A stretch of DNA of 64,000 nt. Origin: an uncultured archaeon. GTDB taxonomy: Archaea; Iainarchaeota; Iainarchaeia; Iainarchaeales; Iainarchaeaceae. Under the pieces are notes generated by a model, which ran no database searches, was not told the DNA's origin, and saw nothing but the letters and a program-made list of their open reading frames with translations. Both the position numbers and the translations under genes were made by a program. The first letter of the stretch is position 1. Each line of letters opens with the position of its first letter. The DNA lies in NCBI GenBank assembly GCA_964577555.1, contig CAZNZM010000002.1, positions 11,741-75,740 of the forward strand, in the 5' to 3' direction. This document shows positions 17,950 through 63,230 of the stretch, piece by piece.

Positions 17950-17954
17950 TGTTG

Positions 17955-25829: not shown

Positions 25830-25834
25830 TATTT

Positions 25835-32505: not shown

Positions 32506-32534
32506 GTTTTAAGAATAAACTGTGGTGGGGGAAA

Positions 32535-34649: not shown

Positions 34650-34745
34650 CTTTTTTTTGAAGTTATTTAATTTTTTAAAACCATTTCATCAGAATCATAG
34701 AATTTGGTTAAATAGTAATAAATATGGCATATTCTAATTAGTTTT

Positions 34746-35690: not shown

Positions 35691-35697
35691 GAAATTT

Positions 35698-40286: not shown

Positions 40287-40299
40287 GTTTATTATTTTA

Positions 40300-43785: not shown

Positions 43786-43931
43786 TTTTGCATTTTTTTT
43801 AAAGTTTGGTGCTAAAAATATTGGTTTTAAGCAATCGCTTGTTTTTCCGGATTTTTAAGTTGTTTTACAATAAAAAAATCCATTTTTTTTGGCACCCCTC
43901 AATAATTAATAATAGTATTTCGTAAAATAGT

Positions 43932-45620: not shown

Positions 45621-45624
45621 TTTT

Positions 45625-45940
45625 TTTTGTTTTTGTGAGTTGTTTTTTTAGGCGTTTTATTTTTTTTGTTTGGTGTTTTTTTTTGAATTTGCTTTTTTTG
45701 TGTTGTTTTTTTTGTGATTTTATTTTTTTTAATTCCAAATTGTTTTGTCTTTTTTTGTGGCTTGGATTTTTTGTTTGAATTTTTGTTTTTTTTGCGAGCC
45801 GAATTTTTTTTATTTTTGAAATTTAATTTGTTTTTTTTGTTTGATCTGATTTTTTTGCTGGCATATTTAGTTTTTTTTCTATTTTTATTTTTTTCTTTTT
45901 AATGTTTGTTTTGTTTTTTTTTGTTTTACCAAAATTATTA
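45625..45940. repeat. GCGAGCC-oligo(T) family repeat array.
   Basis: ttgcgagccgaatttttttt plus T-rich units. Confidence 0.65.
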
Positions 45941-45945
45941 TATAA
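45934..45945 (+). promoter_or_regulatory. TATA-box-like element upstream of ppsA.
   Basis: attattatataa lies about 35-40 nt upstream of ATG 45979. Confidence 0.35.
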
Positions 45946-45978
45946 CACTATTTCCTCGTAATTTAAGGTGTTTTTTTT

Positions 45979-48396: not shown

Positions 48397-48472
48397 TGGT
48401 GGGCCCGGCAGGAATTGAACCTGCTACCTCCACCGTGTCAAGGTGACGTCATAACCGATAGACCACGGGCCC
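48397..48472 (-). tRNA. tRNA-Val (anticodon GAC) with genomically encoded CCA.
   Basis: The minus strand reads GGGCCCG-TG-GTCT..GAC-G-TCACC-TTGACAC-GGTGG-AGGTA-GCAGG-TTCAATT-CCTGC-CGGGCCC-A-CCA. Confidence 0.85.
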
Positions 48473-48556
48473 AACAAGTTTTCGTTATTGAATTGGCTTA
48501 AATAATATTAAAAAGGTTGATTTTTTCTTTTCATTTGATGTTTTTTTTGAGTTTTT

Positions 48557-49588
48557 TTAGTTTAAAAATTTTGTTTGGTGGCAACTAAGCGTTTCTTTTT
48601 TTTGGGTTGTTTTGACAATTTTTTGTTTTTCTGTTTTGTTTAATTTTTTTAATTGTTTGCAGGTTCCGCATATTTCGCCGTTGCATGGTTCGCCGCATAT
48701 TATGCATTCTTTGAACTTTGCTTCTTTTTCTTTTTCTATTTTTTTGAGCAGTGGCTTTAATTGTTTGTGTGCTTCAAGTATTTTGAATTTTGTTCCGGGA
48801 AAATTGTTTTCCAGTTCGTTTAGCATTTGTCTGTAATAATTTCTTTTAGCCATCCAAGAGTATGGGCAACATTCTTGGCTGTAATATTCTATTCTTTTCA
48901 TGTTTGCGTATGCTATTATTTCTTTTTCTGGAGTTTCGTAGAGTGGTTTTATTCTTGGAACCAGTTTTTTGTTTTTTCTTTGTCCTGTTGTTTCTCCGCT
49001 TCGTGCAATTCTTGTCAAGTCGTTGTCTGTAATGCTCATTATTATGCTTTGGACTTCGTCGTCTAGGTTGTGTCCTGTTGCGAGTTTGTCAGCGCCTATT
49101 TCTGTTGCTTTTTCGTTTAGTATTTTTCTTCTAAAAACCCCGCAGAATGAACATGTGCTTCCAAGCGATTTGTCTTTTGTTATTTTTTCCATTGTTTCGT
49201 GCATGTCAATTCCTATTTCTTTTTCAAATTTTGCGATTTGGTATTCTATGTTGTTTTTGTCGCAGTATCTTTTTGCGATTTCTATTGCCTTGTCTCTGTA
49301 TCCTTTTATTCCTTCGTCAATCATTATTGCTGTTATTTTATTGTGTTTTGTTTTTCCGAATAGTTCGTTCAGTATGTGTAGCGTTACCATTGAGTCTTTT
49401 CCTCCTGATACTCCTACTGCTATTTTTTCTCCGTATTTTAGCATGCCTTCTTTGGCAGTGGTTTTTTTTATTCTTTTTTCAAATAGTTCGATGAAGTGCT
49501 TTTTGCACAAGTTGTGTGGCCCGTATGGCAAGACTATTGTTGTCTGTTCATTGCATCTGTCGCATTTGTTGTTTATTTTCAGTTCCAT
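48557..49588 (-). CDS. PP-loop ATPase tRNA 2-thiolation protein (NcsA/Ncs6/TtuA family).
   Basis: It has the PP-loop SGGKDS, an N-terminal Zn finger CDRC...C, and a C-terminal CIICGEPC...CGTC zinc ribbon. Confidence 0.7.
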   Translation of the reverse strand: MELKINNKCDRCNEQTTIVLPYGPHNLCKKHFIELFEKRIKKTTAKEGMLKYGEKIAVGVSGGKDSMVTLHILNELFGKTKHNKITAIMIDEGIKGYRDKAIEIAKRYCDKNNIEYQIAKFEKEIGIDMHETMEKITKDKSLGSTCSFCGVFRRKILNEKATEIGADKLATGHNLDDEVQSIIMSITDNDLTRIARSGETTGQRKNKKLVPRIKPLYETPEKEIIAYANMKRIEYYSQECCPYSWMAKRNYYRQMLNELENNFPGTKFKILEAHKQLKPLLKKIEKEKEAKFKECIICGEPCNGEICGTCKQLKKLNKTEKQKIVKTTQKKETLSCHQTKFLN

Positions 49589-49676
49589 TATTTAGAATTT
49601 TGTTTAAAAGGTTTTAAAATACTCGGGTAATTGGGTGTTCATTTTTAAATATTTTTCACTATTGTTTTCAAAATAA

Positions 49677-49686
49677 GTTTTATATT
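49677..49686 (+). promoter_or_regulatory. TATA-box-like element at the head of the superoperon (upstream of rpl15e).
   Basis: ttttatatta lies about 30 nt upstream of TTG 49706 and about 55 nt upstream of ATG 49742. Confidence 0.35.
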
Positions 49687-49741
49687 ACTTCTCTATAAGG
49701 ATTAATTGTCTAAAAGAGGATTTTTTTGTGAAGTGGTTTCA

Positions 49742-50347
49742 ATGAGTTTTTCAAAACATGTTTCAAGTACTTTCCAAAAAGAGTTCAAGAAGTCTAGAAA
49801 GGATGGCGCTTATAATTATGCCGCAATTTTTAGAAATAGGGTTATTGAGCAAAGAAAGAAGGGTGTTGCTGTTGTTAGGCTTGACGGTCCTACAAATATT
49901 CCGAGGGCTCGTTCTTTGGGTTATAAGGCTAAACAAGGTGTTTTTGTTGTATTGGTTAGGGTTAGGAAGGGTTCTGGGCTTAAAAGGAGGCCTTCTAGTG
50001 GAAGAAAGCCAAAGCAAATGGGTATTTCAAAGCTAACTAGGAGGATTTCAAGGCAGTCAATGGCTGAAATTAAGGCTTCTGCCAAATATCCTAATTGTGA
50101 AGTGTTGAATAGTTATTGGGTTGGCGAGGATGGTTTGAATACTTTTTATGAAGTCATTTTAGTTGATACAAATAGTCCTTCTGTTAAGTCTGATAAGTCT
50201 TTAAAGTGGATTTCTTCTGGTAAGCATAGGGGCAGAGCAGAGCGTGGAAAGACTTCTAGTGCAAGAAAAAGCAGGGGTTTGAAGCGTGGAAAAGGGCATG
50301 AAAAAAATTTTCCTAGTTTGAGGGCCAAGCATAGGCTTGCAAAGTGA
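49742..50347 (+). CDS. rpl15e: 50S ribosomal protein L15e.
   Basis: VVRLDGPTNIPRARSLGYKAKQG, NSYWVGEDG and the basic C-terminus match L15e. ATG 49742 was chosen; the track ORF starts at TTG 49706. Confidence 0.8.
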   Translation: MSFSKHVSSTFQKEFKKSRKDGAYNYAAIFRNRVIEQRKKGVAVVRLDGPTNIPRARSLGYKAKQGVFVVLVRVRKGSGLKRRPSSGRKPKQMGISKLTRRISRQSMAEIKASAKYPNCEVLNSYWVGEDGLNTFYEVILVDTNSPSVKSDKSLKWISSGKHRGRAERGKTSSARKSRGLKRGKGHEKNFPSLRAKHRLAK

Positions 50348-50387
50348 ATTTATTGCTATTTAATATTTTTTGTCTTAATTTTTATTC

Positions 50388-50996
50388 ATGCTTGATTTGA
50401 CATTTGGTTATTGTCCTGTTTCGGGGTTGGCTTCAAAGCTTAATGTGAAGGCTTTTGTTGTTGCCGGTTTTTTCAAAAAAGATTTGCCGAAATCAAGTGA
50501 TTTTGATTTTTATTCGTGCAGTGTTTTTTCAAAGCCTGATTTTTCTGGTTTGAAGAAATCAAGGCTTTTATCAGATTTTGTTGCTGTTGATGGTTGTTCT
50601 CCTGAATTGTGTGCTTGGGCTGCCAATTCCAAAGTTGATTTGCTTCTTCAGCCTTTTAGCGTTGAAGGAAATTTTGTTGATTCTGAAACCGCAGGTATTT
50701 TGTCTCGAAATAATGTTTTTGTCGGCATTTTGTTTTCCGAATTTTTGAAGTTGAATGGTTATCAAAGGCAGTTGTTGTTGAAAAATGCGGTTCAGTGTAT
50801 TAAGGTTCTTGAAAATGCAGGTGTAAAAATAGTTTTTTTTTCAGGTGCTGAAAACGAGTTTCAATTGCGCTCTCCTCGTGATTTTTCTTCTTTTGGAGTT
50901 TTGTTGGGTTTGAAGCGTGAAAGTGCTTTGAGGTGCGTGAAGCAAAATTTGAGTTTGTTTTTGGGGCGATTGCATGAGGGTTCCAAGTCAAATTGA
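50388..50996 (+). CDS. rnp3: RNase P protein component 3 (Rpp30).
   Basis: The C-terminal two-thirds aligns by eye to archaeal Rpp30 (VDLLLQPF..., ...IVFFSGAENEFQLRSPRDFSSFGVLLGL). Position after rpl15e agrees with the conserved order. Confidence 0.65.
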   Translation: MLDLTFGYCPVSGLASKLNVKAFVVAGFFKKDLPKSSDFDFYSCSVFSKPDFSGLKKSRLLSDFVAVDGCSPELCAWAANSKVDLLLQPFSVEGNFVDSETAGILSRNNVFVGILFSEFLKLNGYQRQLLLKNAVQCIKVLENAGVKIVFFSGAENEFQLRSPRDFSSFGVLLGLKRESALRCVKQNLSLFLGRLHEGSKSN

Positions 50997-51516
50997 ATGC
51001 GAAGAGTTATTGAAAAAATACGCTGTGCCTGAGAATATTATTGCTCATACTGCTATGGTTAGAAAGGTTGCGAATTTTCTTGCTTTAAAAATTTCAATGA
51101 GGGGTGTAAAAGTTGATTTGGAAGCTGTTGACAAAGGTGCGTTGCTTCATGATTTGATGAAAATGTATTGTATAAAGAACGGTTGCAGGCATGCTGCAGA
51201 GGCTGAGAAGGTTCTGGCTGGTTTGGGTTATCGTGAATTCGGGTTTTTGTTGAAGTTACATGGCCTTGAAGAAGTTAATTATTTTGACGATAATACTCCT
51301 ATAGAAGCTAAAATAATTTGGTATGCTGATAAAAGGGTTAATCATGATAAAGTGGTTTCTATGGATCAGCGGTATGAGTATTTGAAGGAGCGTTATGGTT
51401 CTATTTCAAAGGGAAAGATGGATGAAATAATTGGAACTGAAAAGAATTCAAAAAGGTTGGAAAAAGAATTGCTTGGTTTGGCAGGTGTTAACGAATCTTT
51501 GGAGGGTTTGTTGTGA
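50974..51516 (+). CDS. HD-domain phosphohydrolase.
   Basis: H...HD...D is arranged as HTAMV...LLHDLMK...YADKRVNHD. It is inserted between rnp3 and rnp2. Confidence 0.6.
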   Translation: MRVPSQIECEELLKKYAVPENIIAHTAMVRKVANFLALKISMRGVKVDLEAVDKGALLHDLMKMYCIKNGCRHAAEAEKVLAGLGYREFGFLLKLHGLEEVNYFDDNTPIEAKIIWYADKRVNHDKVVSMDQRYEYLKERYGSISKGKMDEIIGTEKNSKRLEKELLGLAGVNESLEGLL

Positions 51517-51854
51517 CAAAAGTTAAGAAGTTTGTTAATCCTATTCCAAGGGTTTTGCGTGGCAAGAAAAGGTATTTAAAATTTGCTTTTTTGTCTTTAA
51601 AAAGTTTTTCCGAAAAATCTGTTTGGTCTTCTGTCATGAGTGTTTTTTTTCAGCTTTTTGGCGAGGTTGGTTTGGCAAATCAGAAGCTTTGGTTTGTGTC
51701 TTGGAATCAGGATAAATGTGAAGGTATTATTCGCTGTAGCCATGATTCGGTTGAGCATGTAAAAGCCGGTTTGTTGTTTGTGCAGGAAATTGATAGTGAT
51801 AAGGTAATTCCTGTTTTGCTTAAGGTTTCTGGTTCTATTAAGAAGTTGAAGTGA
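51513..51854 (+). CDS. rnp2: RNase P protein component 2 (Pop5).
   Basis: At 113 aa, it has LRGKKRYLKFAF (an R-x-K-x-RY-type N-terminal motif). Position before psmA agrees with the conserved order. Confidence 0.55.
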   Translation: MTKVKKFVNPIPRVLRGKKRYLKFAFLSLKSFSEKSVWSSVMSVFFQLFGEVGLANQKLWFVSWNQDKCEGIIRCSHDSVEHVKAGLLFVQEIDSDKVIPVLLKVSGSIKKLK

Positions 51855-51954
51855 TTTTTTTTGGTTATTATTATTTTTTTGGTTTTTTTGAAAGTATTAT
51901 TTATATACCTTACTATAATGAAATAGTATTGTTTTTCGAAGAGAGTGATTTGTT

Positions 51955-52677
51955 TTGTATCCAAGTTCTCAGCCTGCAAACTATGATCGTGCAGCCACGA
52001 TGTTTTCGCCTGATGGAAGGCTTTATCAGGTGGAGTATGCATCTAAAATAGTTTCGCAAGGCACTATGGGTGTTGCTTGTAAGTTTTCTGATGGTGTTGT
52101 TTTTGCTGCTGATAAGAAGATAACCAGCAGGCTTTTGATTCCCGACTCTGTTGAGAAAATTTTTCCTATTGATGATCATATTATTGCGGTTTCTGCGGGG
52201 CTTGTTGGTGATGCCAGGCGTCTTATTGGCATTGCTAGGCAGAAGGCTCAAGAGAATAGGATTTATTATGATAGTGAGATTCAAATAGAGACTCTTGTTA
52301 AGGAAGTTTCAAACATAAAACAGCTTTATACTCAATATGGCGGTATGAGGCCTTTTGGCATTTCATTTATTGTTGGAGGTGTTGATAGTACTGGCAAGCG
52401 TCTTTTTGAAACAGAGCCTTCTGGTGCTCTTGCCGAATATCATGCAATTGCCATAGGCAAAAACAGGAATAAAGCCATGGATTTTTTTGAAAAGGAATAT
52501 AAGGAGAATCTTTCAAGGGATGCTGGGGTAAGGCTTTTGCTTAAAGCTCTTGAGTTTGGGCTTGACGAGAAGGAGAAGCTTGACATTAAAAGGGTTCAAG
52601 TAATGTATGTTGATTCTTCAAAAAAGTTTACTTCCATATCCCAAGAAGAGCTTAAGTTAATAATTTCAAAACAATGA
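51955..52677 (+). CDS. psmA: Proteasome alpha subunit.
   Basis: It has YDRAATMFSPDGRLYQVEYA. A TTG start is forced because an in-frame TGA lies 9 nt upstream and the conserved YDR precedes the first ATG. Confidence 0.9.
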   Translation: MYPSSQPANYDRAATMFSPDGRLYQVEYASKIVSQGTMGVACKFSDGVVFAADKKITSRLLIPDSVEKIFPIDDHIIAVSAGLVGDARRLIGIARQKAQENRIYYDSEIQIETLVKEVSNIKQLYTQYGGMRPFGISFIVGGVDSTGKRLFETEPSGALAEYHAIAIGKNRNKAMDFFEKEYKENLSRDAGVRLLLKALEFGLDEKEKLDIKRVQVMYVDSSKKFTSISQEELKLIISKQ

Positions 52678-52720
52678 GTTTTGATTGAATTTGTTTTTTT
52701 TAGGGAAAAGGTAATTTAAA

Positions 52721-53422
52721 ATGGTAAGGGTAGAGGATGCGGTAATTGCTCGGTTTGAACATTCTGGGGAGAGATTTGAAATACTTGTAGATCCCAACCT
52801 TGCAATGGATTTGAAGCATGGCAAAGATGTTGATTTTGATGATCTTTTAGCCATTGATTCTATTTTCAAGGATGCGCATAAGGGCGAGGTTAAGAGTGAG
52901 GAGTCTTTGAGAAAGGTTTTTGGAACCACTAATGTTTATGATGTTGCGAGGCGTATTATACTTGAAGGCGAGGTGCAATTGACAACTCAACAAAGGAAGG
53001 AGATTGCCGATAGGAAAAGAAAGGAGATAATTAATTTTATTTCAAGAAACGCTATGAATCCACAGACAAAGGCTCCGCATCCTGCCCAAAGAATTGAGGC
53101 TGCTCTTAATGAGCTTAAATTTAATGTTGATATAAATAAGCCTACTCAGGAGTTGGTGCAAGAGGCTCTTAAAGGCATTAGAAAGTTGCTTCCTATTTCA
53201 ATGGATAAGCTTAATATTGCGGTAAAAATTCCTGCTGAGTTTTCAGGCAAGGCTTCTGTTATTTTGCATAAGTATGGTTTGAAAAAGGAGGAGTGGCAGA
53301 ATGATGGTAGTTTGGTTGCGCTTCTTGAATTGCCTGCTGGAGCAAAGCAGGATCTTTTCAATGAATTGAATCATTTGACGCATGGACAGGTTGAGTCAAG
53401 GATTTTGGAGAACAAGGGGTGA
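52721..53422 (+). CDS. sdo1: Ribosome maturation protein SDO1/SBDS homolog.
   Basis: It has the N-terminal FYSH domain VRVEDAVIARFEHSGERFEILVDP. It sits in the conserved position between psmA and rrp4. Confidence 0.8.
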   Translation: MVRVEDAVIARFEHSGERFEILVDPNLAMDLKHGKDVDFDDLLAIDSIFKDAHKGEVKSEESLRKVFGTTNVYDVARRIILEGEVQLTTQQRKEIADRKRKEIINFISRNAMNPQTKAPHPAQRIEAALNELKFNVDINKPTQELVQEALKGIRKLLPISMDKLNIAVKIPAEFSGKASVILHKYGLKKEEWQNDGSLVALLELPAGAKQDLFNELNHLTHGQVESRILENKG

Positions 53423-53428
53423 GTTTTT

Positions 53429-54103
53429 GTGAAAAGATTGGTTATACCTGGTGAATTGGTGACTGAGGAGAGGAAGAAGTTGGGTTCTCATGTTTTTGTG
53501 CGTGAGGGCAAAATTTATTCTGATTCCATTGGTTTGGTGAATGATGAGAGTGATTTTGCTTCTGTCGTGCCTCTTGAAGGCAGGTATATGCCTCAAGTTG
53601 GTGATATTGTAATAGGGGTTATTACTGGGGAGAAATTTGCTGTTTATGTCATTGATATAAATAGTTTTTATCAAAGTTTTGTTTTGAAGAAGGATATTCG
53701 TGAAATGCTTAAACCTGGTAGTATTGTTTCTGCAAAAGTTGTTAAGGTTAATGAGCTTAATGAAGTGGAACTTGCAATGCCGAGGCTTTTTTTTGGTGGT
53801 GAAGTTATTGATATTTCTCCTGTGAAAATACCTCGTGTTATAGGCCGGGATGGTTCTATGTTGAATTTGCTTAAAGAGGGTACCGGCTCTATGATAATGG
53901 TTGGCAGGAATGGGCGTATTTGGGCAAAAGGCGGCAATATTGATTTGCTCAAAAAGGCTCTTGCCAAGATTGAGTCGGAAGCTCATTTGGATAATCTTAC
54001 TAACAGAGTTGCTGAGTTTCTTAATTTGCATTCTGTTAATAAGCCGAAATTGGCTTCTGATGGTTTGCATGATGGTTTTGATAATGAAGAGGTTGATCAT
54101 TAA
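53429..54103 (+). CDS. rrp4: Exosome RNA-binding subunit Rrp4 (S1 + KH).
   Basis: It has an S1 domain (GDIVIGVITGE...VSAKVVKV) and a KH domain (RVIGRDGSMLNLL). It starts at GTG. Confidence 0.85.
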   Translation: MKRLVIPGELVTEERKKLGSHVFVREGKIYSDSIGLVNDESDFASVVPLEGRYMPQVGDIVIGVITGEKFAVYVIDINSFYQSFVLKKDIREMLKPGSIVSAKVVKVNELNEVELAMPRLFFGGEVIDISPVKIPRVIGRDGSMLNLLKEGTGSMIMVGRNGRIWAKGGNIDLLKKALAKIESEAHLDNLTNRVAEFLNLHSVNKPKLASDGLHDGFDNEEVDH

Positions 54104-54870
54104 TGGGTAAAAAGAAGGAAGTTGAAATGACATATGTGGATTCAAAAGGTAAAAGGCTTGATGGAAGAAAAGTTGATGAGCTTAGGCCTATAAAAATAAC
54201 TTGTGGAGTCATACCAATGGCTGATGGTTCTGCTTACCTTGAATGGGGGCAGAATAAGGTTATTGCTGCGGTTCATGGGCCTTCTGAATGTTTGCCAAAG
54301 CATACTGCTTCGCCGTATAAGGCAATGGTGAAGTTTAGTTATAGGATGGCTACTTTCAGCGTGCCTGATAGAAAAAATCCCAAGCCTGGCAGAAGGGAGA
54401 TTGAGATTTCGAAGGTTTGTGGTGAAGCTCTTGAAAGAGTGATTTTTACTGAGCGTTTTCCAAATACTGAAATTAATATAACTGTTGAAATAATTGACAG
54501 CAACGCTGGTTCAAGGATTGCTGCTCTTACTGCAGCTTCCGTGGCGCTTGCAGATGCTGGCATTCCAATGAGGGACATGGTTTGTGGCACAAGTGTTGGC
54601 AAGGCTGGTGGCAAGTTGATTGTGGATTTGAATAAGGATGAAGAGGATGCTCCTGATGCTGTTGATATTCCTGTTGCAATAATGCCTAATACTGGTGAGA
54701 TAGTTTTGTTGCAGCTTGACGGGATATTGACTCGCAAAGAGTGGGATGATGCTGTGAAAATGGCTTTTGAAGCAGCGCAAAAGGTTTATGAAATACAAAG
54801 ACAGGCTCTTAAAGCCAAATATGCTGAGCCTGATGCAGTTAGTGAGAAAGGAGTTGAGCAGGATGAGTAA
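54103..54870 (+). CDS. rrp41: Exosome RNase PH subunit Rrp41.
   Basis: It has the RNase PH fold (RLDGRKVDELRPI, DGSAYLEWG). Its ATG overlaps the rrp4 stop. Confidence 0.85.
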   Translation: MGKKKEVEMTYVDSKGKRLDGRKVDELRPIKITCGVIPMADGSAYLEWGQNKVIAAVHGPSECLPKHTASPYKAMVKFSYRMATFSVPDRKNPKPGRREIEISKVCGEALERVIFTERFPNTEINITVEIIDSNAGSRIAALTAASVALADAGIPMRDMVCGTSVGKAGGKLIVDLNKDEEDAPDAVDIPVAIMPNTGEIVLLQLDGILTRKEWDDAVKMAFEAAQKVYEIQRQALKAKYAEPDAVSEKGVEQDE

Positions 54871-55642
54871 TGGTTTTTGGGATTTGAGGGTTGATAAGAT
54901 TATTGCTGATCTCAAGGAAGGCAAGAGGCAGGATGGCAGGAAAGTTGACGAGCTTAGAAACGTGGTTATTACAAATAACATAAGCGAGAATGCTGCTGGT
55001 TCAGCAAGAGTTAAATGGGGCTATACTGATGTTATATTTGGAGTAAAATTTGAAATTGCTGAACCTTATCCTGATACTCCTGATGAAGGCGGCATAAGTG
55101 TAGGAGTTGAACTTTTGCCAATGGCGGATCCTGATTATGAAGTTGGTCCGCCTTCGGAAGAGGCTATTGAGCTTTCAAGAGTTGTTGACAGGGGAATAAG
55201 AGAGAGCAAGGGTATTGATTTTAAGGAGCTTTGCCTTGTTGAAGGTGAAAAAGTTTTGATGGCTTATGTGGATGGTTATGTCATTAATAATGATGGCAAC
55301 CTTTTTGATGCGTGTGCAATTGGTGCTTTGAGTTCTCTTCTAAATTGCAGACTTCCAAAAGTTGAAGACGGCAAAATCGTGGCAGGAGAATACTCTGGCA
55401 AATTGAAGTTGAAGTACAAACCAATTTTAAGCACTTTTGGCAAAATAGGGACTGTCATTGTTGCTGATCCTTTGTTGGCTGAAGAAAAAGCAATGTCTGC
55501 AAGGTTTTCGGTTTCTTTGATGGACGATGACAGAATATGTGCGTTTCAAAAAGGACTTTCAGGTTCTTTTAAATTGGACGAAATAAACAATTGTCTTGAC
55601 ATTGCCGCAAAGAACAGTAAGCTTTTAAGAAAGTTATTGTAG
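54863..55642 (+). CDS. rrp42: Exosome RNase PH-like subunit Rrp42.
   Basis: It has QDGRKVDELRNVV. ATG 54863 overlaps the rrp41 stop in the ATGAGTAA arrangement. The longer track ORF is a read-through artefact. Confidence 0.8.
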   Translation: MSNGFWDLRVDKIIADLKEGKRQDGRKVDELRNVVITNNISENAAGSARVKWGYTDVIFGVKFEIAEPYPDTPDEGGISVGVELLPMADPDYEVGPPSEEAIELSRVVDRGIRESKGIDFKELCLVEGEKVLMAYVDGYVINNDGNLFDACAIGALSSLLNCRLPKVEDGKIVAGEYSGKLKLKYKPILSTFGKIGTVIVADPLLAEEKAMSARFSVSLMDDDRICAFQKGLSGSFKLDEINNCLDIAAKNSKLLRKLL

Positions 55643-55653
55643 GAGTGTAAATT

Positions 55654-56010
55654 ATGGGTAGTACAAAAAAAGTTAAAAGTACAGGGCGTTTTGGCTCGCG
55701 TTATGGCGTAGGGATAAGAAAAAGGCTTCTTGATATAGAGCCAGAACAAAAAGCAAAAAACAAATGCCCTGATTGTGGTTCTTATAATGTTAAAAGGGTA
55801 AGCAAAGGTATTTTTGAATGCAAAAAATGCAATGCCAAATTTATTGGCGGAGCCTATTTGCCTCAAACTCTTGCCGGCAAAATTATAAATCAAATGGTTT
55901 CACTTAAAAGTTTCTCACAAGAAATGCTTGCTTCGCTTTCAAAGGCAAAGGGCGAAGAATTGCAAAGTGATGGCCAACAAGGTGATAATGAAAAAAAGGA
56001 GGTTGCTTGA
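55654..56010 (+). CDS. rpl37ae: 50S ribosomal protein L37ae (eL43) with a C-terminal extension.
   Basis: It has the C4 ribbon CPDCG...CKKCN and the GVGIRKRL core. About 25 extra C-terminal residues are present. Confidence 0.85.
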   Translation: MGSTKKVKSTGRFGSRYGVGIRKRLLDIEPEQKAKNKCPDCGSYNVKRVSKGIFECKKCNAKFIGGAYLPQTLAGKIINQMVSLKSFSQEMLASLSKAKGEELQSDGQQGDNEKKEVA

Positions 56011-56142
56011 ATGTATAAATGTTTGCAATGCGGAAAGGAAGTTTCTAACCTAGTGGCTGGTGCGATCAGGTGTCCTGCTTGCGGTTCAAAAATTTTTTCC
56101 AAAATGAGAGACTCTATTTTAAAAAATGTGAAGGCAGTTTGA
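56011..56142 (+). CDS. rpoP: DNA-directed RNA polymerase subunit P (RpoP/Rpb12).
   Basis: A 43-aa ORF absent from the track reads MYKCLQCGKEVSNLVAGAIRCPACGSKIFSKMRDSILKNVKAV, a C4 zinc ribbon. It is in the conserved position after rpl37ae. Confidence 0.7.
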   Translation: MYKCLQCGKEVSNLVAGAIRCPACGSKIFSKMRDSILKNVKAV

Positions 56143-56378
56143 TGGAACAAGTTTTTTTGGAATTCAGGTTTCAAAACGAAACCTGTGCCAATTTTGCGGT
56201 TTTGGCATTATCGCCTGAATTGAATAGAAGATTAGGTCAACGTTCTTCAATTTTAATACAAAGCAATAAAAATATTGTCAAGCTTAAAATATTTGCAAAT
56301 GACAAGCATGCTTTGAAAGCTTCAGAGCATTCTTATAAAAGTTTGTTGGGTCTTTGTCTTAAACTTTGCAATTTATGA
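56142..56378 (+). CDS. pcc1: KEOPS complex subunit Pcc1-like.
   Basis: The 78-aa MEQVFLEFRFQNETCANFAVLALSPEL...ALKASEHSYKSLLGLC fits the Pcc1 pattern F-E-F-x-S-x-x-A...L-x-P-E and the C-terminal helix. Its ATG overlaps the rpoP stop. Confidence 0.5.
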   Translation: MEQVFLEFRFQNETCANFAVLALSPELNRRLGQRSSILIQSNKNIVKLKIFANDKHALKASEHSYKSLLGLCLKLCNL

Positions 56379-56391
56379 AGGTGGATTTTTT

Positions 56392-56745
56392 ATGGTTGAT
56401 TTGAACAAAAACATTCAAGAATTTGAAAGAAGCAGGGTTCAACTTGCCGCAATAGAAAACCAAAGCAATACTCTTTCAATGCAAAGCAAATTCATAGATG
56501 AAGCGTTGAAAGAATTAAAAGAAACTAAAGAGGAAAAGGTTTACAAGGCTGTTGGAAACATTTTAATACTTTCAGATTCAAAAAAAGTCATGAAAGAACT
56601 TGAAGAGCAGAAGGAAACAATTGCCTTGAGATTGAAGACAATTAAAAAGCAGGAAGAAGCAGTTATTGACAAAATGAACAAGCTCAAAAACGAAATTGAA
56701 AATGCTCAAAAAAGTTCCACTGGAGAAAATAAAGAGGAAAATTAA
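56392..56745 (+). CDS. pfdB: Prefoldin beta subunit.
   Basis: It is a 117-aa coiled-coil hairpin protein. It is in the conserved superoperon position. Confidence 0.75.
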   Translation: MVDLNKNIQEFERSRVQLAAIENQSNTLSMQSKFIDEALKELKETKEEKVYKAVGNILILSDSKKVMKELEEQKETIALRLKTIKKQEEAVIDKMNKLKNEIENAQKSSTGENKEEN

Positions 56746-57759
56746 ATGGTGCTGAAAAGCCTTTCAAAGTTTTTCGGCAAAAAATTGCTTATTATTGCTC
56801 ATTCCGGCGCTGATGTTGATGCCATGGCTTCGGCTGGCGCCATATATTTTTCATTACGTAAAAAAATCCAGATTAAAATAGGTGTTCCGGACCATGTGAA
56901 CCTCAACGCAAAAAAATTGTGTGAAAGCCTTGGCATAAAATACGAAATTAATCCTTTATTAAAAAATTTTGATTGCGTTTTATGTGTTGACTTTTCAAGT
57001 AGCGAAATGCTTGGGTCGATGAAAAAAGATTTTGATTTTTTTACTGGTGAAAAATTTGTTATAGATCACCACGACAAAAAAAAGCCACGTCTTGTTCCTG
57101 AAAACAATTTTGTAATTAGGGAAACCGCTGTTTCTTCGACTGAAATTGTTTATGAATTGCTGAAATCAACCAATGGAGCAACCATTTCAAAAAAAGCATA
57201 TGCTTGTATTGCAGCCGGAATAATTTCAGATTCTGCAGGATTTATGGTTGCCGACCACAATACTTTTTCAATAATGGCTGATTCTCTTAAAGGCGCAGGC
57301 ATGTCGTATTATAAAGTCGCTTCGCTTTTTTATTTGCCAAAAGATATTTCCGAATCCATTGCAATGTTAAAAGCGGCAAAAAGAGCAAGGTTTTTCAGGA
57401 GTAGCAATGTTTTAATTGCAATATCTCAAATAGGTTCTTTTGAAGCTGATGCCGCTTCAGGATTGATTAAGTTAGGAGCGACTGTCGCCTTTTGTGGTTA
57501 TGCTGAGAAAAGCAAAATAAGGGTTAGTGGTAGAGTGAATAATAATTGGTTAAAAGAAAACAACTTTGATTTGGCAAAAGACGTATTTCAAAAACTTGCG
57601 TTAAAGTTTGGCGGAGCGGGTGGTGGCCATTCCGGAGCGGCTGGTTTCAACGGAAACGGAGAAGAAGTTGAATCAGTTTTATTAGAATGCGTAAGGCTTG
57701 TCCATTCATTTGTTTTAAATAAATTTAAAGGGGCAAAATTGAGTGAACTTGTTGATTAA
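56746..57759 (+). CDS. DHH-family phosphoesterase (NrnA-like, DHH + DHHA1).
   Basis: It has IIAHSGADVDAMAS, the DHH motif VIDHHD, and the DHHA1 motif GGGHSGAAGF. Confidence 0.7.
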   Translation: MVLKSLSKFFGKKLLIIAHSGADVDAMASAGAIYFSLRKKIQIKIGVPDHVNLNAKKLCESLGIKYEINPLLKNFDCVLCVDFSSSEMLGSMKKDFDFFTGEKFVIDHHDKKKPRLVPENNFVIRETAVSSTEIVYELLKSTNGATISKKAYACIAAGIISDSAGFMVADHNTFSIMADSLKGAGMSYYKVASLFYLPKDISESIAMLKAAKRARFFRSSNVLIAISQIGSFEADAASGLIKLGATVAFCGYAEKSKIRVSGRVNNNWLKENNFDLAKDVFQKLALKFGGAGGGHSGAAGFNGNGEEVESVLLECVRLVHSFVLNKFKGAKLSELVD

Positions 57760-57845
57760 TTTTTTAGCGCTTGCCGCTTTGAAAGTGAAAAATTGTGTCT
57801 TTTAAGAACCTTAAGAACCAAGTACTTTAATTGGTAGTAGGCCCT

Positions 57846-58031
57846 TTATTTTTTTCTTTTTTTTCTTTCAGCTTCAAGGTCTTTTATTTTTTCAATTTCT
57901 TCAGGATTATATGGTTTTGCATATTTCCTGTATTTTGTTTTAGCCCAATGTTCAGGTTGTTTTTTTCTTAATTCAAGCTCTTCATTTATCAAATTTTTTC
58001 TGAGTTTTTCCGACGGTTTAGGAAACTGCAC
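57846..58031 (-). CDS. Small basic hypothetical protein.
   Basis: It is 61 aa and K/R/E-rich with no motif. Confidence 0.25.
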   Translation of the reverse strand: MQFPKPSEKLRKNLINEELELRKKQPEHWAKTKYRKYAKPYNPEEIEKIKDLEAERKKRKK

Positions 58032-58148
58032 ATATTAATATTGTTTTTTTTATATTTAAGCCAACCTGTTAAATGTGTTAGATGAAAGAGGTTTAAAAGT
58101 TTTTGATTTTTTTTTAGCTTCAATTGGTCAATTAAGAATTTTTCATAT

Positions 58149-58466
58149 TTACATGTTTTTTATTTTTAAAAAACAAGATTCGCATATGAATTTATCCATG
58201 AAGTCCATTCCATTTTTGCTGAATTGAGAGCACAATATGCACGGTCTGCCTTCTTTTATTTTAGTTTGGAGGCTCCAAATGTAAAGAGTTTCCCAGTCAA
58301 GCCAAGCAGGAAGAACAATTTCATTTAATACTGTTTTATCGTTTTGCTGTATTCTAATAATTTGAGATGGTACTAGTTGTTTATTGAGTTTTTCCAAAAA
58401 TTCAACTCTTTCTTTTTGTCCTCGTCTTATCATATCTAATTTTTTTGCTTCCCAAATTTCATCCAT
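58149..58466 (-). CDS. Hypothetical protein with a C-terminal CxxC...CxxC zinc-ribbon-like motif.
   Basis: It is 105 aa and contains CILCSQ...CESCF. Confidence 0.35.
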   Translation of the reverse strand: MDEIWEAKKLDMIRRGQKERVEFLEKLNKQLVPSQIIRIQQNDKTVLNEIVLPAWLDWETLYIWSLQTKIKEGRPCILCSQFSKNGMDFMDKFICESCFLKIKNM

Positions 58467-58647
58467 GAATTAAGAAAATGCATTAATATATTTAATTTCA
58501 ACTGTTGTCAGATTTGCCGGTTAAAGTTGTAAATTTTTATTTAAAAAACAGGGGCCTTTTTGTGCGCAAGGCTTGGCAATTATGCATTGTTTTTATCTGA
58601 AAAAAATTGTGCTTTAATAGGGTAAGAAGTATTTTAAATTAATTTTT

Positions 58648-59013
58648 TTAAAGGTATATTATTTTTTTTCCTTTTTTTATTTTTTTCCTTTCAGCATACT
58701 TTATCAGATAATGGCAGGTGCTTTTAGGTATGCCTGTTATTTTCTCTATTTCTCGGTATGTTCTGTTGTCTCTGTGCATTTCCACTACTTCTAAAATTTT
58801 TTCCAAGTCGAGTTTTATAGGTCTTCCAGCAGAATTTTCAACAATTATGTTTCCGCCTGATTCTTTTATGAGTTTTAAAGTTTTTTTTGGCATTCGCTCT
58901 AATGTGCTTTTCGGCATTCTGAATTCTTTTATTCCTGATTCAATCATTTTTTTCACATAGGCAAATTTTTGAGGCCTTGCCAAATGGATTTTTGTTTCAT
59001 TCATACTACTCAT
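58648..59013 (-). CDS. Hypothetical DNA-binding protein with a C-terminal helix-turn-helix (resolvase/transposase-type HTH).
   Basis: It is 121 aa and contains TYREIEKITGIPKSTCHYLIKY. Confidence 0.4.
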   Translation of the reverse strand: MSSMNETKIHLARPQKFAYVKKMIESGIKEFRMPKSTLERMPKKTLKLIKESGGNIIVENSAGRPIKLDLEKILEVVEMHRDNRTYREIEKITGIPKSTCHYLIKYAERKKIKKGKKIIYL

Positions 59014-59056
59014 TTTTGATATACGTAACTTTTTTAAGTAAATTCAAATTCTTTTT

Positions 59057-60262
59057 TTGCTGATTTGTATGAAAGGTTTTGACAGTATTAAGTCTGCATT
59101 GAAAGATCTTAAAAATGGAAAAATGGTGGTTGTGGTTGATGGTGATGATCGGGAAAATGAAGGGGATATTTTGCTTGCTGCCGAAAAGGCGACTCCAGAA
59201 AAATTGAATTTTATAATAAAAGAAGCAAGAGGCCTTTTATGTGTTCCAATAACACAGAAAAAAGCAGATCAATTGGGCCTTCCGAAAATGACTTGGCAGA
59301 ATGACAAATTTAATACTCCTTTTACTGTTTCTGTTGATGCGGCTTCTTGCGGTACAGGTATAAGCGTGCAAGACAGGCTTCTCACTATTAAAAAAATTCT
59401 TTCCGAAAAGTCCAAACCAGAGTCATTGCGCCGACCCGGGCATTTGTTTCCTTTGGTTGCTCAGGATGCAGGAGTTCTTGCGAGGCCGGGCCACACGGAA
59501 GCCGCGGTTGATTTGCTTTTGCTTGCAAATCTGAAACCAGTCGGAGTAATTTCAGAAATTATGAACGATGACGGTTCAATGGCAAGGTTGCCAGAATTAA
59601 AGAAATTTGCTAAATTGCATAATTTGAAATTGATTTCAATAAGGGATTTAATCGATTACAAGATTTCTGCAGGAAAAAACATTTTAGAATGTGGTCATGC
59701 CAAGCTTCCAACAAAATTTGGAAATTTTGAAGCAATAGGTTTTCGCGATTCCCTTGCAAACGAAATTTATTTAGTAGTAAAAAAAGGAGATTTGAAAAAA
59801 GGCAAATCGCCTTTGGTAAGAATTCATTCTGCATGCATAACTGGAGATGTTTTTCACAGCCTTAGGTGTGACTGCAATGATCAATTGCATGCAGCGTTAA
59901 AAAAAATTGAAAGAAATGGAAATGGTTTGGTTATTTATGTGCCTCATCATGAAGGCAGAGGGGCTGGGCTTTTGAACAAGCTTAAAGCTTATGAATTGCA
60001 AGAAAAAGGCAGGGACACTGTTGATGCAAATTTGGAGCTTGGCTTGGAAATTGATAGCAGGGATTTTGGTCCAAGCGCACAAATTTTGCTTCATTTAGGA
60101 ATTAAGAAAATCAGATTAATGAGCAACAACCCTGTAAAAAAATTGAATCTTGAAGCTTATGGTATAAAGATCACAGAAGTGGTGCCTTTAAAGGTAAAAC
60201 CTAACAAATATAATAAATTTTATCTTGAAACCAAAAAATTAAAATTAGGACATTTTTTATAA
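59057..60262 (+). CDS. ribBA: Bifunctional 3,4-dihydroxy-2-butanone-4-phosphate synthase / GTP cyclohydrolase II (bacterial-type RibBA).
   Basis: The RibB half has VVVDGDDRENEGDIL and ARPGHTEA. The RibA half has RIHSACITGDVFHSLRCDCNDQL and EGRGAGLLNK. Confidence 0.85.
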   Translation: MLICMKGFDSIKSALKDLKNGKMVVVVDGDDRENEGDILLAAEKATPEKLNFIIKEARGLLCVPITQKKADQLGLPKMTWQNDKFNTPFTVSVDAASCGTGISVQDRLLTIKKILSEKSKPESLRRPGHLFPLVAQDAGVLARPGHTEAAVDLLLLANLKPVGVISEIMNDDGSMARLPELKKFAKLHNLKLISIRDLIDYKISAGKNILECGHAKLPTKFGNFEAIGFRDSLANEIYLVVKKGDLKKGKSPLVRIHSACITGDVFHSLRCDCNDQLHAALKKIERNGNGLVIYVPHHEGRGAGLLNKLKAYELQEKGRDTVDANLELGLEIDSRDFGPSAQILLHLGIKKIRLMSNNPVKKLNLEAYGIKITEVVPLKVKPNKYNKFYLETKKLKLGHFL

Positions 60263-60325
60263 AATTTGTTTTTTGAAATTATTCATTAAACATTTGTTTA
60301 AATTAATTTATCAAGGTGTTTTAAA

Positions 60326-61234
60326 TTGTCTGAAAAATTCTCTGCTATATTTGGGCTTATAGTTTCGTCTTTTATTTTTGCAATTGTAGGGATTTCTTAC
60401 AAATTGTTTATTTCAATAGGAATTGCATTTATTTCTTTTTTTTGGATAACTCGGTTGTTAAAATTGCTTACTGTTTACGGGATTATGAAAGCAAGAGGAA
60501 TAAATATTGAAATAATCAGTGATAGGCGAGAATTATTTTTTCTTTATTTAAACGGTTTTTTTAGCGTAATAAGTCCTATTTTTTTTGCTCTTGCATTGAT
60601 TTATACAAAAGTATCAACAGCATATTTCCTTTCATACACAATGCCTGCCTGGACTTTGATTTTTTCAGTTGCATTTCTTGGTGAAAAAATTTCTTTAAAA
60701 AAATTATTCGGAATAATGCTTACTGTTATTGGAATTTTTTTGATTACACAACCTGGCGACTTATCTTTAGTAAATTTAGGTTTTATTTTTGGGGTTCTTA
60801 CAGCTTTTTCTCATGCCGGGGATATTATAACCTCGCGAGAACTTAAAGATTATAAACCTGAATTAGTTTCGTTTTACTCTAACTTTTTTCAATTTGTCAT
60901 ATTTACTCTGGCTTTTTTTGCAATGTCAAAAGAAATTATTTTTTGGGAGCCTATAATTATTTTTTATTTAATAATTATTGGCATACTTTTGGGAGTTGCC
61001 AGTTCTTTTTATTATTACTCTCTGCATTATATTGAAGCCTCGAAAGCAGCAATAATATCACTTACAGAACTCATATTTGCTTTATTTTTAGGCATGTTGC
61101 TTTTACAAGAGACTCATTCCATTTTTGAATGGTTTGGTTATTTGTTTATAATACTTGCAGCAGGGATATTTATTTTGAGAAAATCATCTATTCAAAATTT
61201 TACACGATTGATAAATTTCAAAAGAAAATACTAG
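60326..61234 (+). CDS. EamA/DMT-superfamily transporter.
   Basis: It has about 10 TM helices in two halves, each ending in a G-rich helix (LTVIGIFLI / ILAAGIFIL). Confidence 0.5.
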   Translation: MSEKFSAIFGLIVSSFIFAIVGISYKLFISIGIAFISFFWITRLLKLLTVYGIMKARGINIEIISDRRELFFLYLNGFFSVISPIFFALALIYTKVSTAYFLSYTMPAWTLIFSVAFLGEKISLKKLFGIMLTVIGIFLITQPGDLSLVNLGFIFGVLTAFSHAGDIITSRELKDYKPELVSFYSNFFQFVIFTLAFFAMSKEIIFWEPIIIFYLIIIGILLGVASSFYYYSLHYIEASKAAIISLTELIFALFLGMLLLQETHSIFEWFGYLFIILAAGIFILRKSSIQNFTRLINFKRKY

Positions 61235-61459
61235 AGTCTTTTGCAAGTTGTTTTAGTTTAAAGTAATAATTTATGAAGAAATAAATAGAATGGTGCTCTC
61301 ATATATAATCCGATGCTTTATGACTTCTATTAGCAAGCTTGGTTAAATTATTACACAAGAATTTTGATCAGCGTTCGCAAACACGACAATTATAGAAATT
61401 TTGGCATGCCAAACATTAAATAATTGTTTTTTATTATTTTGTGTTTTAATTTTAATTAA

Positions 61460-61798
61460 ATGGCAAAAAAATCTGGGTATCCAGAATTGTCTGAGTTAGA
61501 ATTGCGCATACTTGAAATAGTTAGGGAGCGTTGGCCGTCGTCTGCTTTGGAAATAGCTGAGAATTTAGGTGAAGATGTTTCCTCACATGAAAAACGAAAG
61601 CAACAATCAACCAAATATATTTATTATTTGAAAAAACTCGTTGAGAAAAGGCTGATTCTGTCAAAAAGAGCCGGCAATTTGTTATTGGTTTGGCCAATTG
61701 AAGCCGAAGCCTATAGGGCAATTCACCGCATAATTTCAGAAGCTGAAAAAAACGCAGTTGCATGTATTGAAAAAAAGGCAGGTTATAAAAATGCTTAA
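61460..61798 (+). CDS. Winged-helix transcriptional regulator.
   Basis: It has LSELELRILEIVRERWPSSALEIAENLG (an HTH recognition helix). Length is 112 aa. Confidence 0.5.
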   Translation: MAKKSGYPELSELELRILEIVRERWPSSALEIAENLGEDVSSHEKRKQQSTKYIYYLKKLVEKRLILSKRAGNLLLVWPIEAEAYRAIHRIISEAEKNAVACIEKKAGYKNA

Positions 61799-62360
61799 CT
61801 CGTTTTTGGATAAATACATATTTACAAATTCTTTTAGCTACAAACACAACAACTTTTATTTAGTAAACATTCCGCTTGTTATAATTCCGGTTACTACTTT
61901 GGTTGCAATAGCTGAACAAAACAACAAAGACCTTAATATTGAAGTTTATTATTCAATAAAAGAGTCAATAATTTCTTTAATAAAAGAAAACATAATATTT
62001 GAATTTGGCACTAGCAATGAAAAAATTGTCGAATTCATGAATAATTTTTTTTCAGCTTGTGGTTGGGGGAAAATAGATATTATTGACCTTGATAAATTAA
62101 ATACGCGTGCAATACTTTCAGTTACAAATTCTCCTGTAGCAAAATTGTGTAAAATATCAAAAAATCCTTGTGACACTTTTCTGAGAGGCTTTTTTGCAGC
62201 AATATTTTCAACATATTTCAAAAAAGATATTGATTGTGTGGAAATAAAATGTGCCTGTCTTGGTTCGCAATCATGCGAGTTTATTATAAAACCTATTCAA
62301 GAATTCAATTTTGAAAATAATCTGACAAGAAATCAATTATTGTCTAAAAAAGATTTTTGA
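61791..62360 (+). CDS. V4R (4-vinyl-reductase-like) domain protein.
   Basis: ATG 61791 overlaps the upstream stop. The C-terminal VEIKCACLGSQSCEFII fits the E-x2-C-x3-G-x3-C-x-F V4R signature. Confidence 0.45.
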   Translation: MLNSFLDKYIFTNSFSYKHNNFYLVNIPLVIIPVTTLVAIAEQNNKDLNIEVYYSIKESIISLIKENIIFEFGTSNEKIVEFMNNFFSACGWGKIDIIDLDKLNTRAILSVTNSPVAKLCKISKNPCDTFLRGFFAAIFSTYFKKDIDCVEIKCACLGSQSCEFIIKPIQEFNFENNLTRNQLLSKKDF

Positions 62361-62458
62361 AATGTTTTATCATGTTAATTAAATTCAAAAGATTCAGTCA
62401 ATTACACAAAAAACTAGCAATTTTAATAACACCAGAACCTTTTAAATATGCCAAATAC

Positions 62459-63208
62459 ATGATATTTTTAATGATTGAAAGATGTCCTACAGGTATAGAA
62501 GGTTTGGATAAGGCATTAAACGGCGGAATACCAAGAAACAATATTGTCCTAATTTCAGGCGGAGCAGGAACCGGAAAAAGCACCCTTTGCCTTCAATTCT
62601 TAATTAACGGAGTAAAAATATTCAACGAAAAAAGCCTTTATATCTCAACAGAACAAAGCAAAAAAGAAATATTCAAAACAGCAGAGAGCTTTGGCTGGGA
62701 TTTGGCTTCACTCGAAGCCACTAACAAACTAAAAGTAGTTTACTTCGACATTGTCGAAACCGACGGCTTCTTAGAAAAAATGTATGAACTTTACACTTCT
62801 TTTATGCCAAAAAGAGTTGTCATAGACTCGTTAACAACACTAGCAGATTCTTTACTAATTTCCAATAAAGAAACAGACAAATCCTATTCGCTAGTTAAAA
62901 TAGCAGATAGTGTCTCACCAATACCAAAAACAGAAAGGCTAGTTCAAAAAAGCCTGCTTTATCACTTGATGAAAAAACTCCGCCTCTTTGACTCAACAAT
63001 CCTTCTAACTTCAGAATTACTTGAAGGACAAAACGGCCTCAGCGCCGACCAAATAAGCGAATTCGTATGTGATGGAGTGATGGTTTTAAAATATTTAGCA
63101 ATAGGCGAAACATTGAGTAGGACTATTGAAATAAAAAAAATGAGATACACTACTATTGAAGGCGGAATAAAATCTTATGAATTTAGTGATAATGGAATAA
63201 TACTTTGA
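62459..63208 (+). CDS. KaiC-like / RecA-superfamily single-domain ATPase.
   Basis: It has PTGIEGLDKALNGGIP...LISGGAGTGKSTL (Walker A) and a Walker B region VVIDSLT. The start is uncertain. The track ORF starts at TTG 62357. ATGs lie at 62459 and 62471. Confidence 0.65.
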   Translation: MIFLMIERCPTGIEGLDKALNGGIPRNNIVLISGGAGTGKSTLCLQFLINGVKIFNEKSLYISTEQSKKEIFKTAESFGWDLASLEATNKLKVVYFDIVETDGFLEKMYELYTSFMPKRVVIDSLTTLADSLLISNKETDKSYSLVKIADSVSPIPKTERLVQKSLLYHLMKKLRLFDSTILLTSELLEGQNGLSADQISEFVCDGVMVLKYLAIGETLSRTIEIKKMRYTTIEGGIKSYEFSDNGIIL

Positions 63209-63230
63209 TTTTTATGCGAGGTTAATTTTT

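Follow-up and report, generated by a model that had tools for sequence, protein, structure and literature searches.

An unskewed patch of core genes with its left edge inside rrp42 in a strongly strand-asymmetric Iainarchaeota chromosome

The DNA analyzed here (the window) is a 64,000-nt stretch of the chromosome of an Iainarchaeota archaeon (Diapherotrites, DPANN; assembly GCA_964577555.1, contig CAZNZM010000002.1), and its subject is a change of base composition inside rrp42, the gene of an exosome subunit (54,863-55,642, + strand). Genes were taken as the longest non-overlapping open reading frames (ORFs), third codon positions were always read on the + strand, and the closest homologues were found in metagenome-assembled genomes (MAGs) labelled Diapherotrites or Iainarchaeum (DPANN archaea). 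The region around the change is the archaeal exosome/proteasome superoperon, with genes for NcsA, L15e, Rpp30, Rpp14, PsmA, SBDS, Rrp4, Rrp41, Rrp42, L37ae, RpoP, Pcc1, prefoldin beta and a DHH phosphoesterase. To its left lies a skewed domain (2,668-54,940, or to 54942, both strands) with a third-position keto (G+T) skew of +0.33 to +0.72 and a third-position GC content of.29-.34. Core genes of this domain encode aRF1, TruD, PyrH, Dph2, a P-type ATPase, PPase, Mre11, Top6A/B, MCM, MetRS and PpsA, together with NcsA, L15e, RNase P subunits, PsmA, SBDS, Rrp4 and Rrp41 at the end that adjoins rrp42.

Base counts over the whole window are T 26,077, A 15,675, G 13,105 and C 9,143. Third positions in the skewed domain contain about.55 T,.22 G,.15 A and.07 C in either gene orientation, and the per-gene third-position AT skew (-0.2 to -0.86) and GC skew (+0.2 to +0.69) hold for nearly all genes on both strands between ~2.7 and ~55.3 kb. 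On the + strand of the domain, 4-fold degenerate sites are composed alike under + genes (A.14, C.11, G.13, T.62) and under - genes (A.12, C.08, G.17, T.63), so the asymmetry goes with the DNA strand, regardless of the direction of transcription or coding. A strong keto skew of the replication type that ignores coding direction had been described in a first-pass annotation of this DNA, and these values bear it out. Over all positions of the domain (53 kb) the GC skew is +0.19 and the AT skew -0.30; 4-fold sites have an AT skew of about -0.65. Third positions show a keto skew of +0.5 to +0.8, first and second positions one of +0.16 to -0.12, and intergenic DNA of the domain contains.55 T and.20 A. 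The skew thus peaks at weakly selected (synonymous and intergenic) sites, which implies a mutational origin. Proteins are affected too, with valine at 8.7% in + genes of the domain vs 4.0% in - genes. The strongly skewed region spans at least 70 kb, with ~59 kb of skewed sequence seen directly in the window lineage and a 10-kb orthologous flank in the relative L024, and no polarity reversal occurs in ~73 kb of the window lineage (the window and a 9-kb extension described below) or in the 10 kb further left in L024. The size of this orientation-independent skew is the more notable result, and the rrp42 junction is itself of moderate interest.

Within rrp42, the first ~160 codons are skewed and the last ~100 are not; with the gene cut into thirds, their third-position keto skews are +0.30, +0.47 and +0.01. 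The maximum-likelihood change point of third positions is 55,339 (log-likelihood [lnL] gain, 173-182), with a 2-lnL interval of 54,931-55,354 for the junction and a second best point at 54,943. The largest lnL gains in shuffle controls were 11.6 (300 site shuffles) and 66.4 (300 shuffles of 100-codon blocks). An abrupt change at ~55.3 kb in the 3' part of rrp42, with the reading frame continuous across it, had been noted from the letters alone; the coordinate is accurate, and the gene is intact at 259 aa (NCBIfam NF003282, E 3.9e-82). From L37ae onward within the window both AT and GC skew are about 0, so the reported ordinary composition of everything downstream holds inside the window but fails beyond it, where the skew is back ~2.8 kb past the window end.

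Past the window end, sequence up to the equivalent of 73.2 kb comes from the JGI and Logan contigs described below (L029 and L030), which match the window at 100% identity, and the composite was used for segmentation. An unskewed mosaic patch of ~11.5 kb (~55.3-66.8 kb) begins, on its left, at the change in rrp42. Composite segmentation gave lnL gains of 199 for the left edge (~55.3 kb) and 192 for the right one (~66.8 kb; 191.6, with the point at 66,800), so the patch is a sharply bounded segment of atypical composition between host-typical DNA on either side, and the keto skew runs along the sequence from +0.5 through about 0 to +0.59. Block A of the patch (55340-62380; from 54,943 in the segmentation) is near-neutral, with a keto skew of +0.10 and a third-position GC of.28. 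It holds the C-terminal part of rrp42, the genes for L37ae, RpoP, Pcc1, prefoldin beta, the DHH phosphoesterase, RibBA, EamA, a 112-aa ORF and V4R, and three small - strand ORFs. The gene that follows, encoding a KaiC/RadA-like ATPase (62372-63208, + strand; segment 62,383-63,148), has a reversed keto skew of -0.42 and a third-position GC of.31, with 4-fold sites at A.47, C.23, G.04 and T.26. The reversed stretch matches the gene limits, the neighbors are neutral and synteny is conserved; all homologues of the KaiC-like protein align from about residue 34, so its true start is probably downstream of the called one. Block C (63209-64000 in the window, continuing to ~66.8 kb; segment 63,151-66,797) has a keto skew of +0.18 and a third-position GC of.16. 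Genes for PcrB and a HAD hydrolase also lie within the patch.

Codon third positions of the patch are A.33, C.12, G.15 and T.40 (GC3.28), and its intergenic DNA contains.46 T and.29 A, vs.55 and.20 in the domain. Valine makes up 5.2-5.5% of its + gene products. Pooled 4-fold sites of the patch (T ~464 vs A ~318; rough, from derived counts) show a weak skew of the domain polarity. To the right of the patch, a skewed block (66,800-73,207, both strands) with a keto skew of +0.59 and a third-position GC of.29 holds a 93-aa ORF, an HTH gene, an ATP-grasp gene, and genes for beta-CASP, NMD3 and FtsZ. A GC-rich hairpin (CCCCGCC-TTTC-GGCGGGG; L029 14826-14862, equivalent to ~67.2 kb) was seen ~400 bp right of the right edge, in the AT-rich spacer between the 93-aa ORF and the HTH gene, with no Rfam match. 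At the patch edges we found no integrase, tRNA, flanking repeats or Rfam families, and the contents are core genes. A classical genomic island or integrated mobile element was accordingly rejected for the patch, given core cargo and no integrase, tRNA target or direct repeats.

Both junctions recur in other assemblies. A 21.5-kb Logan contig (SRR12686701) is 100% identical to window positions 48,401-64,000 and a 43-kb JGI contig (3300043177) to positions 52,372-64,000; the JGI contig is also identical to the Logan contig past the window end, and both contigs span the right junction as well as the left. The Logan and JGI assemblies may share a sample with the window's own source, and the truly independent evidence comes from L005 (JGI 3300035183), a separate lineage from another metagenome with 88.9% nucleotide identity to the window over 10.3 kb. 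Genes of L005 are skewed up to rrp42 and neutral from L37ae on, with third-position keto skew by thirds of rrp42 of +0.35, +0.30 and -0.07, a switch at the same codon (about 160) and a change-point interval of nt 23-449 of the gene. Because L005 carries the same junction, the junction is inherited and older than the split of the window and L005 lineages.

A chimeric assembly join between two co-occurring related genomes had been offered as one of two explanations of the change, and a junction within a conserved gene, with the frame preserved, is what such a join could look like. We now consider it barely credible: the Logan and JGI assemblies come from different pipelines and agree with the window across both junctions, L005 shares the junction, and no other Rrp42 of the window lineage, skewed or neutral throughout, turned up in a protein search. 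The core of that proposal, that two related genomes are joined inside a conserved gene, fails as an assembler artefact and probably survives as natural recombination, as set out below.

The other explanation offered was a replication origin or terminus, or an inversion breakpoint, at rrp42. The abruptness of the change and a terminus-type switch nearby in the relative L028 (GCA_038884735.1) speak for it. Against it, the skew falls to about zero without changing sign and resumes with the same polarity after 11.5 kb, at ~66.8 kb; since the polarity is the same on both flanks, a polarity switch is excluded. The comparison with relatives that had been proposed as a check was run, and the gene order rrp41-rrp42-L37ae-(RpoP)-Pcc1-prefoldin-DHH is collinear, on one strand, in L005, L006, L007, L025 and L028, with the junction shared by L005. 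The junction lies within coding sequence rather than in intergenic DNA, and no Orc1/Cdc6 was seen among the window proteins scanned, which did not include every ORF. An origin, terminus or inversion breakpoint at this site is highly improbable.

The skew is labile among relatives. It is present in L005, L007, L024, L028 and L032 (GCA_038889715.1) and absent from L006, L025 and L031 (SRR11567540); because close relatives include both kinds, the trait switches on and off quickly. L031 is the next-closest lineage by Rrp42 (89% amino acid identity) and has a third-position GC of ~.6 and no skew, vs ~.3 and extreme skew in the window lineage, so AT-richness and strand asymmetry have both changed greatly over a short protein distance. 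In L007 and L028 (Rrp42 77-78% identical) rrp42, L37ae, DHH and RibBA are all skewed, with no step along them. In L028 the polarity reverses at 7200-8330, between NMD3/HTH and FtsZ and ~7 kb downstream of rrp42; the reversal is of the terminus type, and cumulative GC skew has its maximum there. NMD3 and FtsZ stand in this order in the window lineage too, with no reversal, so polarity switch points move in the clade without local rearrangement. In L032 (1-11792; KaiC 74% identical) an extreme opposite polarity extends over ProRS, Nop56, fibrillarin, V4R and KaiC, with + gene third positions that reach A.73 and T.02 and an AT skew of up to +0.94, stronger than that of the window. A genome contig scan with Rrp42 returned solely distant, unskewed species representatives (54-68%). 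Exact-protein look-ups for the ORF at 41-2143 and the GT2 gene at 3469-4755 found nothing on record, and a metagenome contig scan with the GT2 protein gave distant homologues alone (at most 39% identity) and no flank of the window lineage.

Since the mutation pressure acts on orthologues of the patch genes in sister lineages, the patch needs a special history or a local process. Our preferred explanation, to which we give a little better than even confidence, is that the patch has been exposed to the present strand-specific pressure for a shorter time than its surroundings, having entered by recombinational import with a crossover in rrp42 and not yet reached equilibrium. An exceptionally strong, strand-specific mutation pressure would drive the + strand to T and G at weakly selected sites. 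An excess of T over A with G over C on one strand at neutral sites, whatever the gene direction, is the classical signature of deamination of C and A. The + strand would then be the strand that is single-stranded longest in replication (the lagging-strand template), where C would be deaminated to U and A to hypoxanthine, and forks would cross the domain from left to right. The patch would have been installed by homologous replacement, with its left crossover in the conserved rrp42, probably before the window and L005 lineages split, and would since have moved about a quarter of the way to the skewed equilibrium.

Several observations favor this account. A crossover inside a conserved gene is as homologous replacement predicts. 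The patch proteins lack the amino acid imprint of the skew in their valine content, which favors a shorter residence. The RibBA-EamA-V4R-KaiC arrangement of the patch is that of the unskewed L006, and L007 and L028 pass from RibBA directly to HTH_SB and beta-CASP; resemblance of the gene arrangement to the unskewed and not to the skewed relatives favors recombinational replacement. The KaiC-like gene matches the composition of its surroundings in relatives (neutral in L006, of extreme opposite polarity in L032), and its out-of-context reversed skew in the window therefore reflects history and not gene-specific selection. Because the patch is a mosaic of three blocks (neutral, of opposite polarity in the KaiC-like gene, and very AT-rich), more than one event is suggested. 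A two-state estimate from the window-L005 third-position divergence (rough, not fitted) predicts A ~.32 and T ~.43 if the patch was unskewed near the split, and the observed 4-fold values are A.29-.39 and T.41-.51. The estimate takes the substitutions unpolarized, synonymous sites being saturated in every outgroup (third-position identity, at most.44). Published work on the population genome of a Diapherotrite describes homologous recombination (PMC5905446).

Other observations weigh against import. No donor lineage was identified in a sparse sampling of close sister lineages; the single contig examined in the donor search for the KaiC-like gene, L032, supplied context and no donor. Amino acid identity to every relative is flat across the junction (window vs L031 rrp42 by thirds,.91,.88 and.89) and takes no step from flanking to patch genes, the identity series of KaiC-like homologues (97, 82, 75, 74 and 69%) looks vertical, and the patch edges lack integrase, tRNA and flanking repeats. 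The window and L005 agree at third positions about equally on the two sides of the junction (identity ~.79 upstream, ~.78 downstream), and for that reason there is no independent date for the import. The same comparison led us to reject hypermutation of the skewed domain, where divergence is not higher (~.81 identity vs.75 in the patch). A crossover between skewed and unskewed sequence would need recombination at an estimated nucleotide identity of perhaps 80-87%. Finally, the 4-fold GC of block A (.23-.26) matches that of the domain (.25), which is equally expected if the mutation process of the domain acted on both strands alike in place.

Replication itself could have this effect, if the patch were copied about equally often in both directions, so that both strands mutate alike. 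Initiation that is weak or occasional near 66.8 kb could send a leftward fork that is halted head-on in the rightward-transcribed exosome/ribosomal operon near rrp42, leaving DNA that is AT-rich without skew. Besides the shared 4-fold GC, the A and T contents of block A are near the strand-symmetrized domain composition, the edges are sharp and conserved in L005, there is no phylogenetic sign of import, and the NMD3-FtsZ comparison shows that switch points can shift without local rearrangement. However, the DNA at ~66.8 kb showed no Orc1/Cdc6 gene, cluster of repeats or AT-rich element of the unwinding type, the reversal in the single KaiC-like gene and the much lower third-position GC of block C are left unexplained, and fixed termination inside a gene requires a barrier without evidence. 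We know of no archaeal precedent for a replicon-scale feature of 11.5 kb, and on balance we regard this explanation as improbable. If it were true, composition would be a high-resolution, evolution-averaged map of fork direction, recording kilobase-scale replication architecture in an uncultured DPANN archaeon.

The reversed skew of the KaiC-like gene speaks for another reading, in which the patch, or part of it, once lay in a domain of opposite skew (the other replichore, or the far side of a switch that moved) and has been relaxing through zero, the KaiC-like gene being least relaxed. V4R and KaiC of L032 do lie in an extreme opposite-polarity domain, and L028 has its terminus-type switch a short distance (~7 kb) downstream of rrp42. 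The immediate neighbors of the KaiC-like gene (V4R and a 382-aa gene) are nevertheless neutral or weakly positive, so that adjacent genes would need very different synonymous rates, and both flanks of the patch have positive polarity. Nor can there be a translocation breakpoint at the left edge, where rrp42 is intact and the gene order conserved. A relic of opposite polarity is thus doubtful.

Selection on codon usage is suggested by the first gene of the window, which encodes the C-terminal 700 aa of an S-layer protein (41-2143, + strand; homologues are annotated as S-layer or with PF05124, and the protein has ~1008 aa in relatives). Its third positions are A.30, C.26, G.14 and T.30 (GC.40; keto skew, -0.12; segment 43-2,143), and the same composition is found in L024, whose S-layer protein (gene at L024 10001-13027) is 85% identical. 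The 10 kb upstream of that gene in L024 (PCNA, PriL, PriS, GINS and others) is skewed with the polarity of the window domain, and the T-rich spacer behind the gene is skewed as well. The S-layer gene is thus likely to be unskewed through codon selection in a very highly expressed gene, overriding the mutation bias. The T- and G-rich + strand that had been described from position 1 is accordingly found from ~2.7 to ~55.3 kb but not in this first gene.

Genes of the patch might likewise resist the mutation bias through high expression, which is plausible for L37ae, RpoP and prefoldin. However, DHH, RibBA, an EamA transporter, V4R, PcrB, a HAD hydrolase and hypothetical ORFs lie in the patch too, and its third-position composition differs from that of the S-layer gene (GC3.28 vs.40). 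Its boundary falls mid-gene, the orthologues are skewed in L007 and L028, and the intergenic DNA of the patch is less skewed as well (T.46, A.29). Codon-usage selection on the patch is already largely refuted, and we hold it to be very unlikely. Recombinational import followed by incomplete equilibration is the reading that we favor.

The S-layer gene is followed by a T-rich intergenic spacer (2144-2839, + strand) with oriented T-run/[GC]RAGCC/T-run motifs, and a similar spacer follows the S-layer gene in L024. The spacer at 2.1-2.8 kb was considered as a second regime boundary and possible origin and was rejected, since L024 is skewed with the same polarity over 10 kb to the left of the S-layer gene. 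Two PCNA genes, PriL, PriS and GINS51 are clustered in L024 (1-5150), ~5-10 kb upstream of the S-layer gene and on the skewed strand; no Orc1/Cdc6 was seen in this cluster. Spacers of this kind are 300-700 bp of T runs (6-9 bases) punctuated by GCGAGCC, GCAAGCC or TGAGCC. They were seen at 2150-2830, 8096-8158, 10263-10394, 23473-23971, 25830-26148, 29584-29898, 40286-40620 and 45620-45980 of the window and at 13030-13468 of L024. The pattern TTTTTTNNRAGCCRNTTTTT, with one mismatch allowed, has 17 matches vs 0.26 expected, all between 2.2 and 45.8 kb and on the + strand, however the flanking genes are oriented, and no match in the unskewed patch. The disappearance of GCGAGCC-Tn repeats downstream, as first reported, is thereby confirmed. 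They may be remnants of repeats that took their form from the mutation bias, or a functional motif with a fixed strand orientation.

Skew also varies at gene scale inside the domain in the sliding profile and in the segmentation, for example across 31.7-37.7 kb. This sub-block (31732-37651; keto skew, +0.33) holds a hypothetical gene and the genes for MCM, a Na/Ca exchanger and MetRS. MCM had been named among the examples of the skewed + strand; the gene lies at 32,469-34,649, is not the first gene of the window and is in this region of weaker skew. Weaker sub-blocks (keto skew, +0.1 to +0.4) were noted also at 17100-18000, covering an Rce1-like protease adjoining tRNA-Cys, and at 43930-45620, covering a 562-aa protein without a family match. 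These sub-blocks may be older, partly equilibrated imports.

A recent survey describes archaeal chromosomes as largely without strand-specific mutational skews (PMC12999951), and SkewDB gives a typical effect of about 2.5% in bacteria in its published account (PMC8941118). This Iainarchaeota lineage and several relatives contrast with the survey view, having an orientation-independent skew far above that bacterial value. Our literature search returned no report of skew this extreme in Iainarchaeota or DPANN, and within the literature searched the strand difference is of a degree apparently not reported for archaea. Being labile, the skew could be tied to the gain or loss of specific replication or repair genes by comparison of complete genomes. 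Because the bias is so strong, DNA of a different history stands out at gene resolution, as at the rrp42 junction and in the KaiC-like gene, and extreme skew offers a natural way to read recombination, rearrangement and residence time from the DNA of organisms beyond the reach of culture. Composition-based MAG quality filters and chimera detectors would mistake junctions of this kind, which are genuine, for faults.

Replication-associated asymmetry of the Lobry and Grigoriev type is known as GC and AT skew with a G+T-rich leading strand. The asymmetry of the window resembles it in tracking the DNA strand, in having G over C and T over A on one strand, and in being strongest at 4-fold and intergenic sites, and the relative L028 has a polarity switch with a cumulative GC skew maximum. 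A cumulative GC skew of bacterial type has been reported for the Diapherotrite 'Forterrea' (PMC5905446). Unlike typical replication skew, that of the window is far larger in magnitude and dominated by AT skew, shifts amino acid usage, and shows no switch in ~73 kb.

Amelioration of acquired DNA, a concept of Lawrence and Ochman, and recombination mosaicism offer a second comparison. The patch is like ameliorating DNA in being sharply bounded, in what may be a weak drift to the host pattern and in having one junction inside a conserved gene. It is unlike the usual acquired DNA in being atypical in strand symmetry and not in GC content, in carrying core syntenic cargo with no mobility genes, tRNA or att repeats, and in that no donor or phylogenetic incongruence was detected for it. 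In vertebrate mitochondria, the asymmetry of heavy and light strands is classically ascribed to deamination of a strand that is single-stranded for long. The skewed domain shares with them a G+T-rich vs an A+C-rich strand and altered protein composition; it differs in that nothing here gives evidence for strand-displacement replication and in that the patch does not form part of a gradual change with distance from an origin. Whole-chromosome disparity of G and C between strands (29.8% C, 15.0% G, with A about equal to T) has been described for UBA1400, an order of CPR Microgenomates (Kadnikov et al. 2020, PMC7143001). Those are bacteria with complete genomes, in which the disparity concerns G vs C only and no internal unskewed patch was described, whereas T vs A dominates here; in both cases, an ultra-small uncultured lineage has a large disparity that keeps one direction over long distances and is found in some related lineages only.

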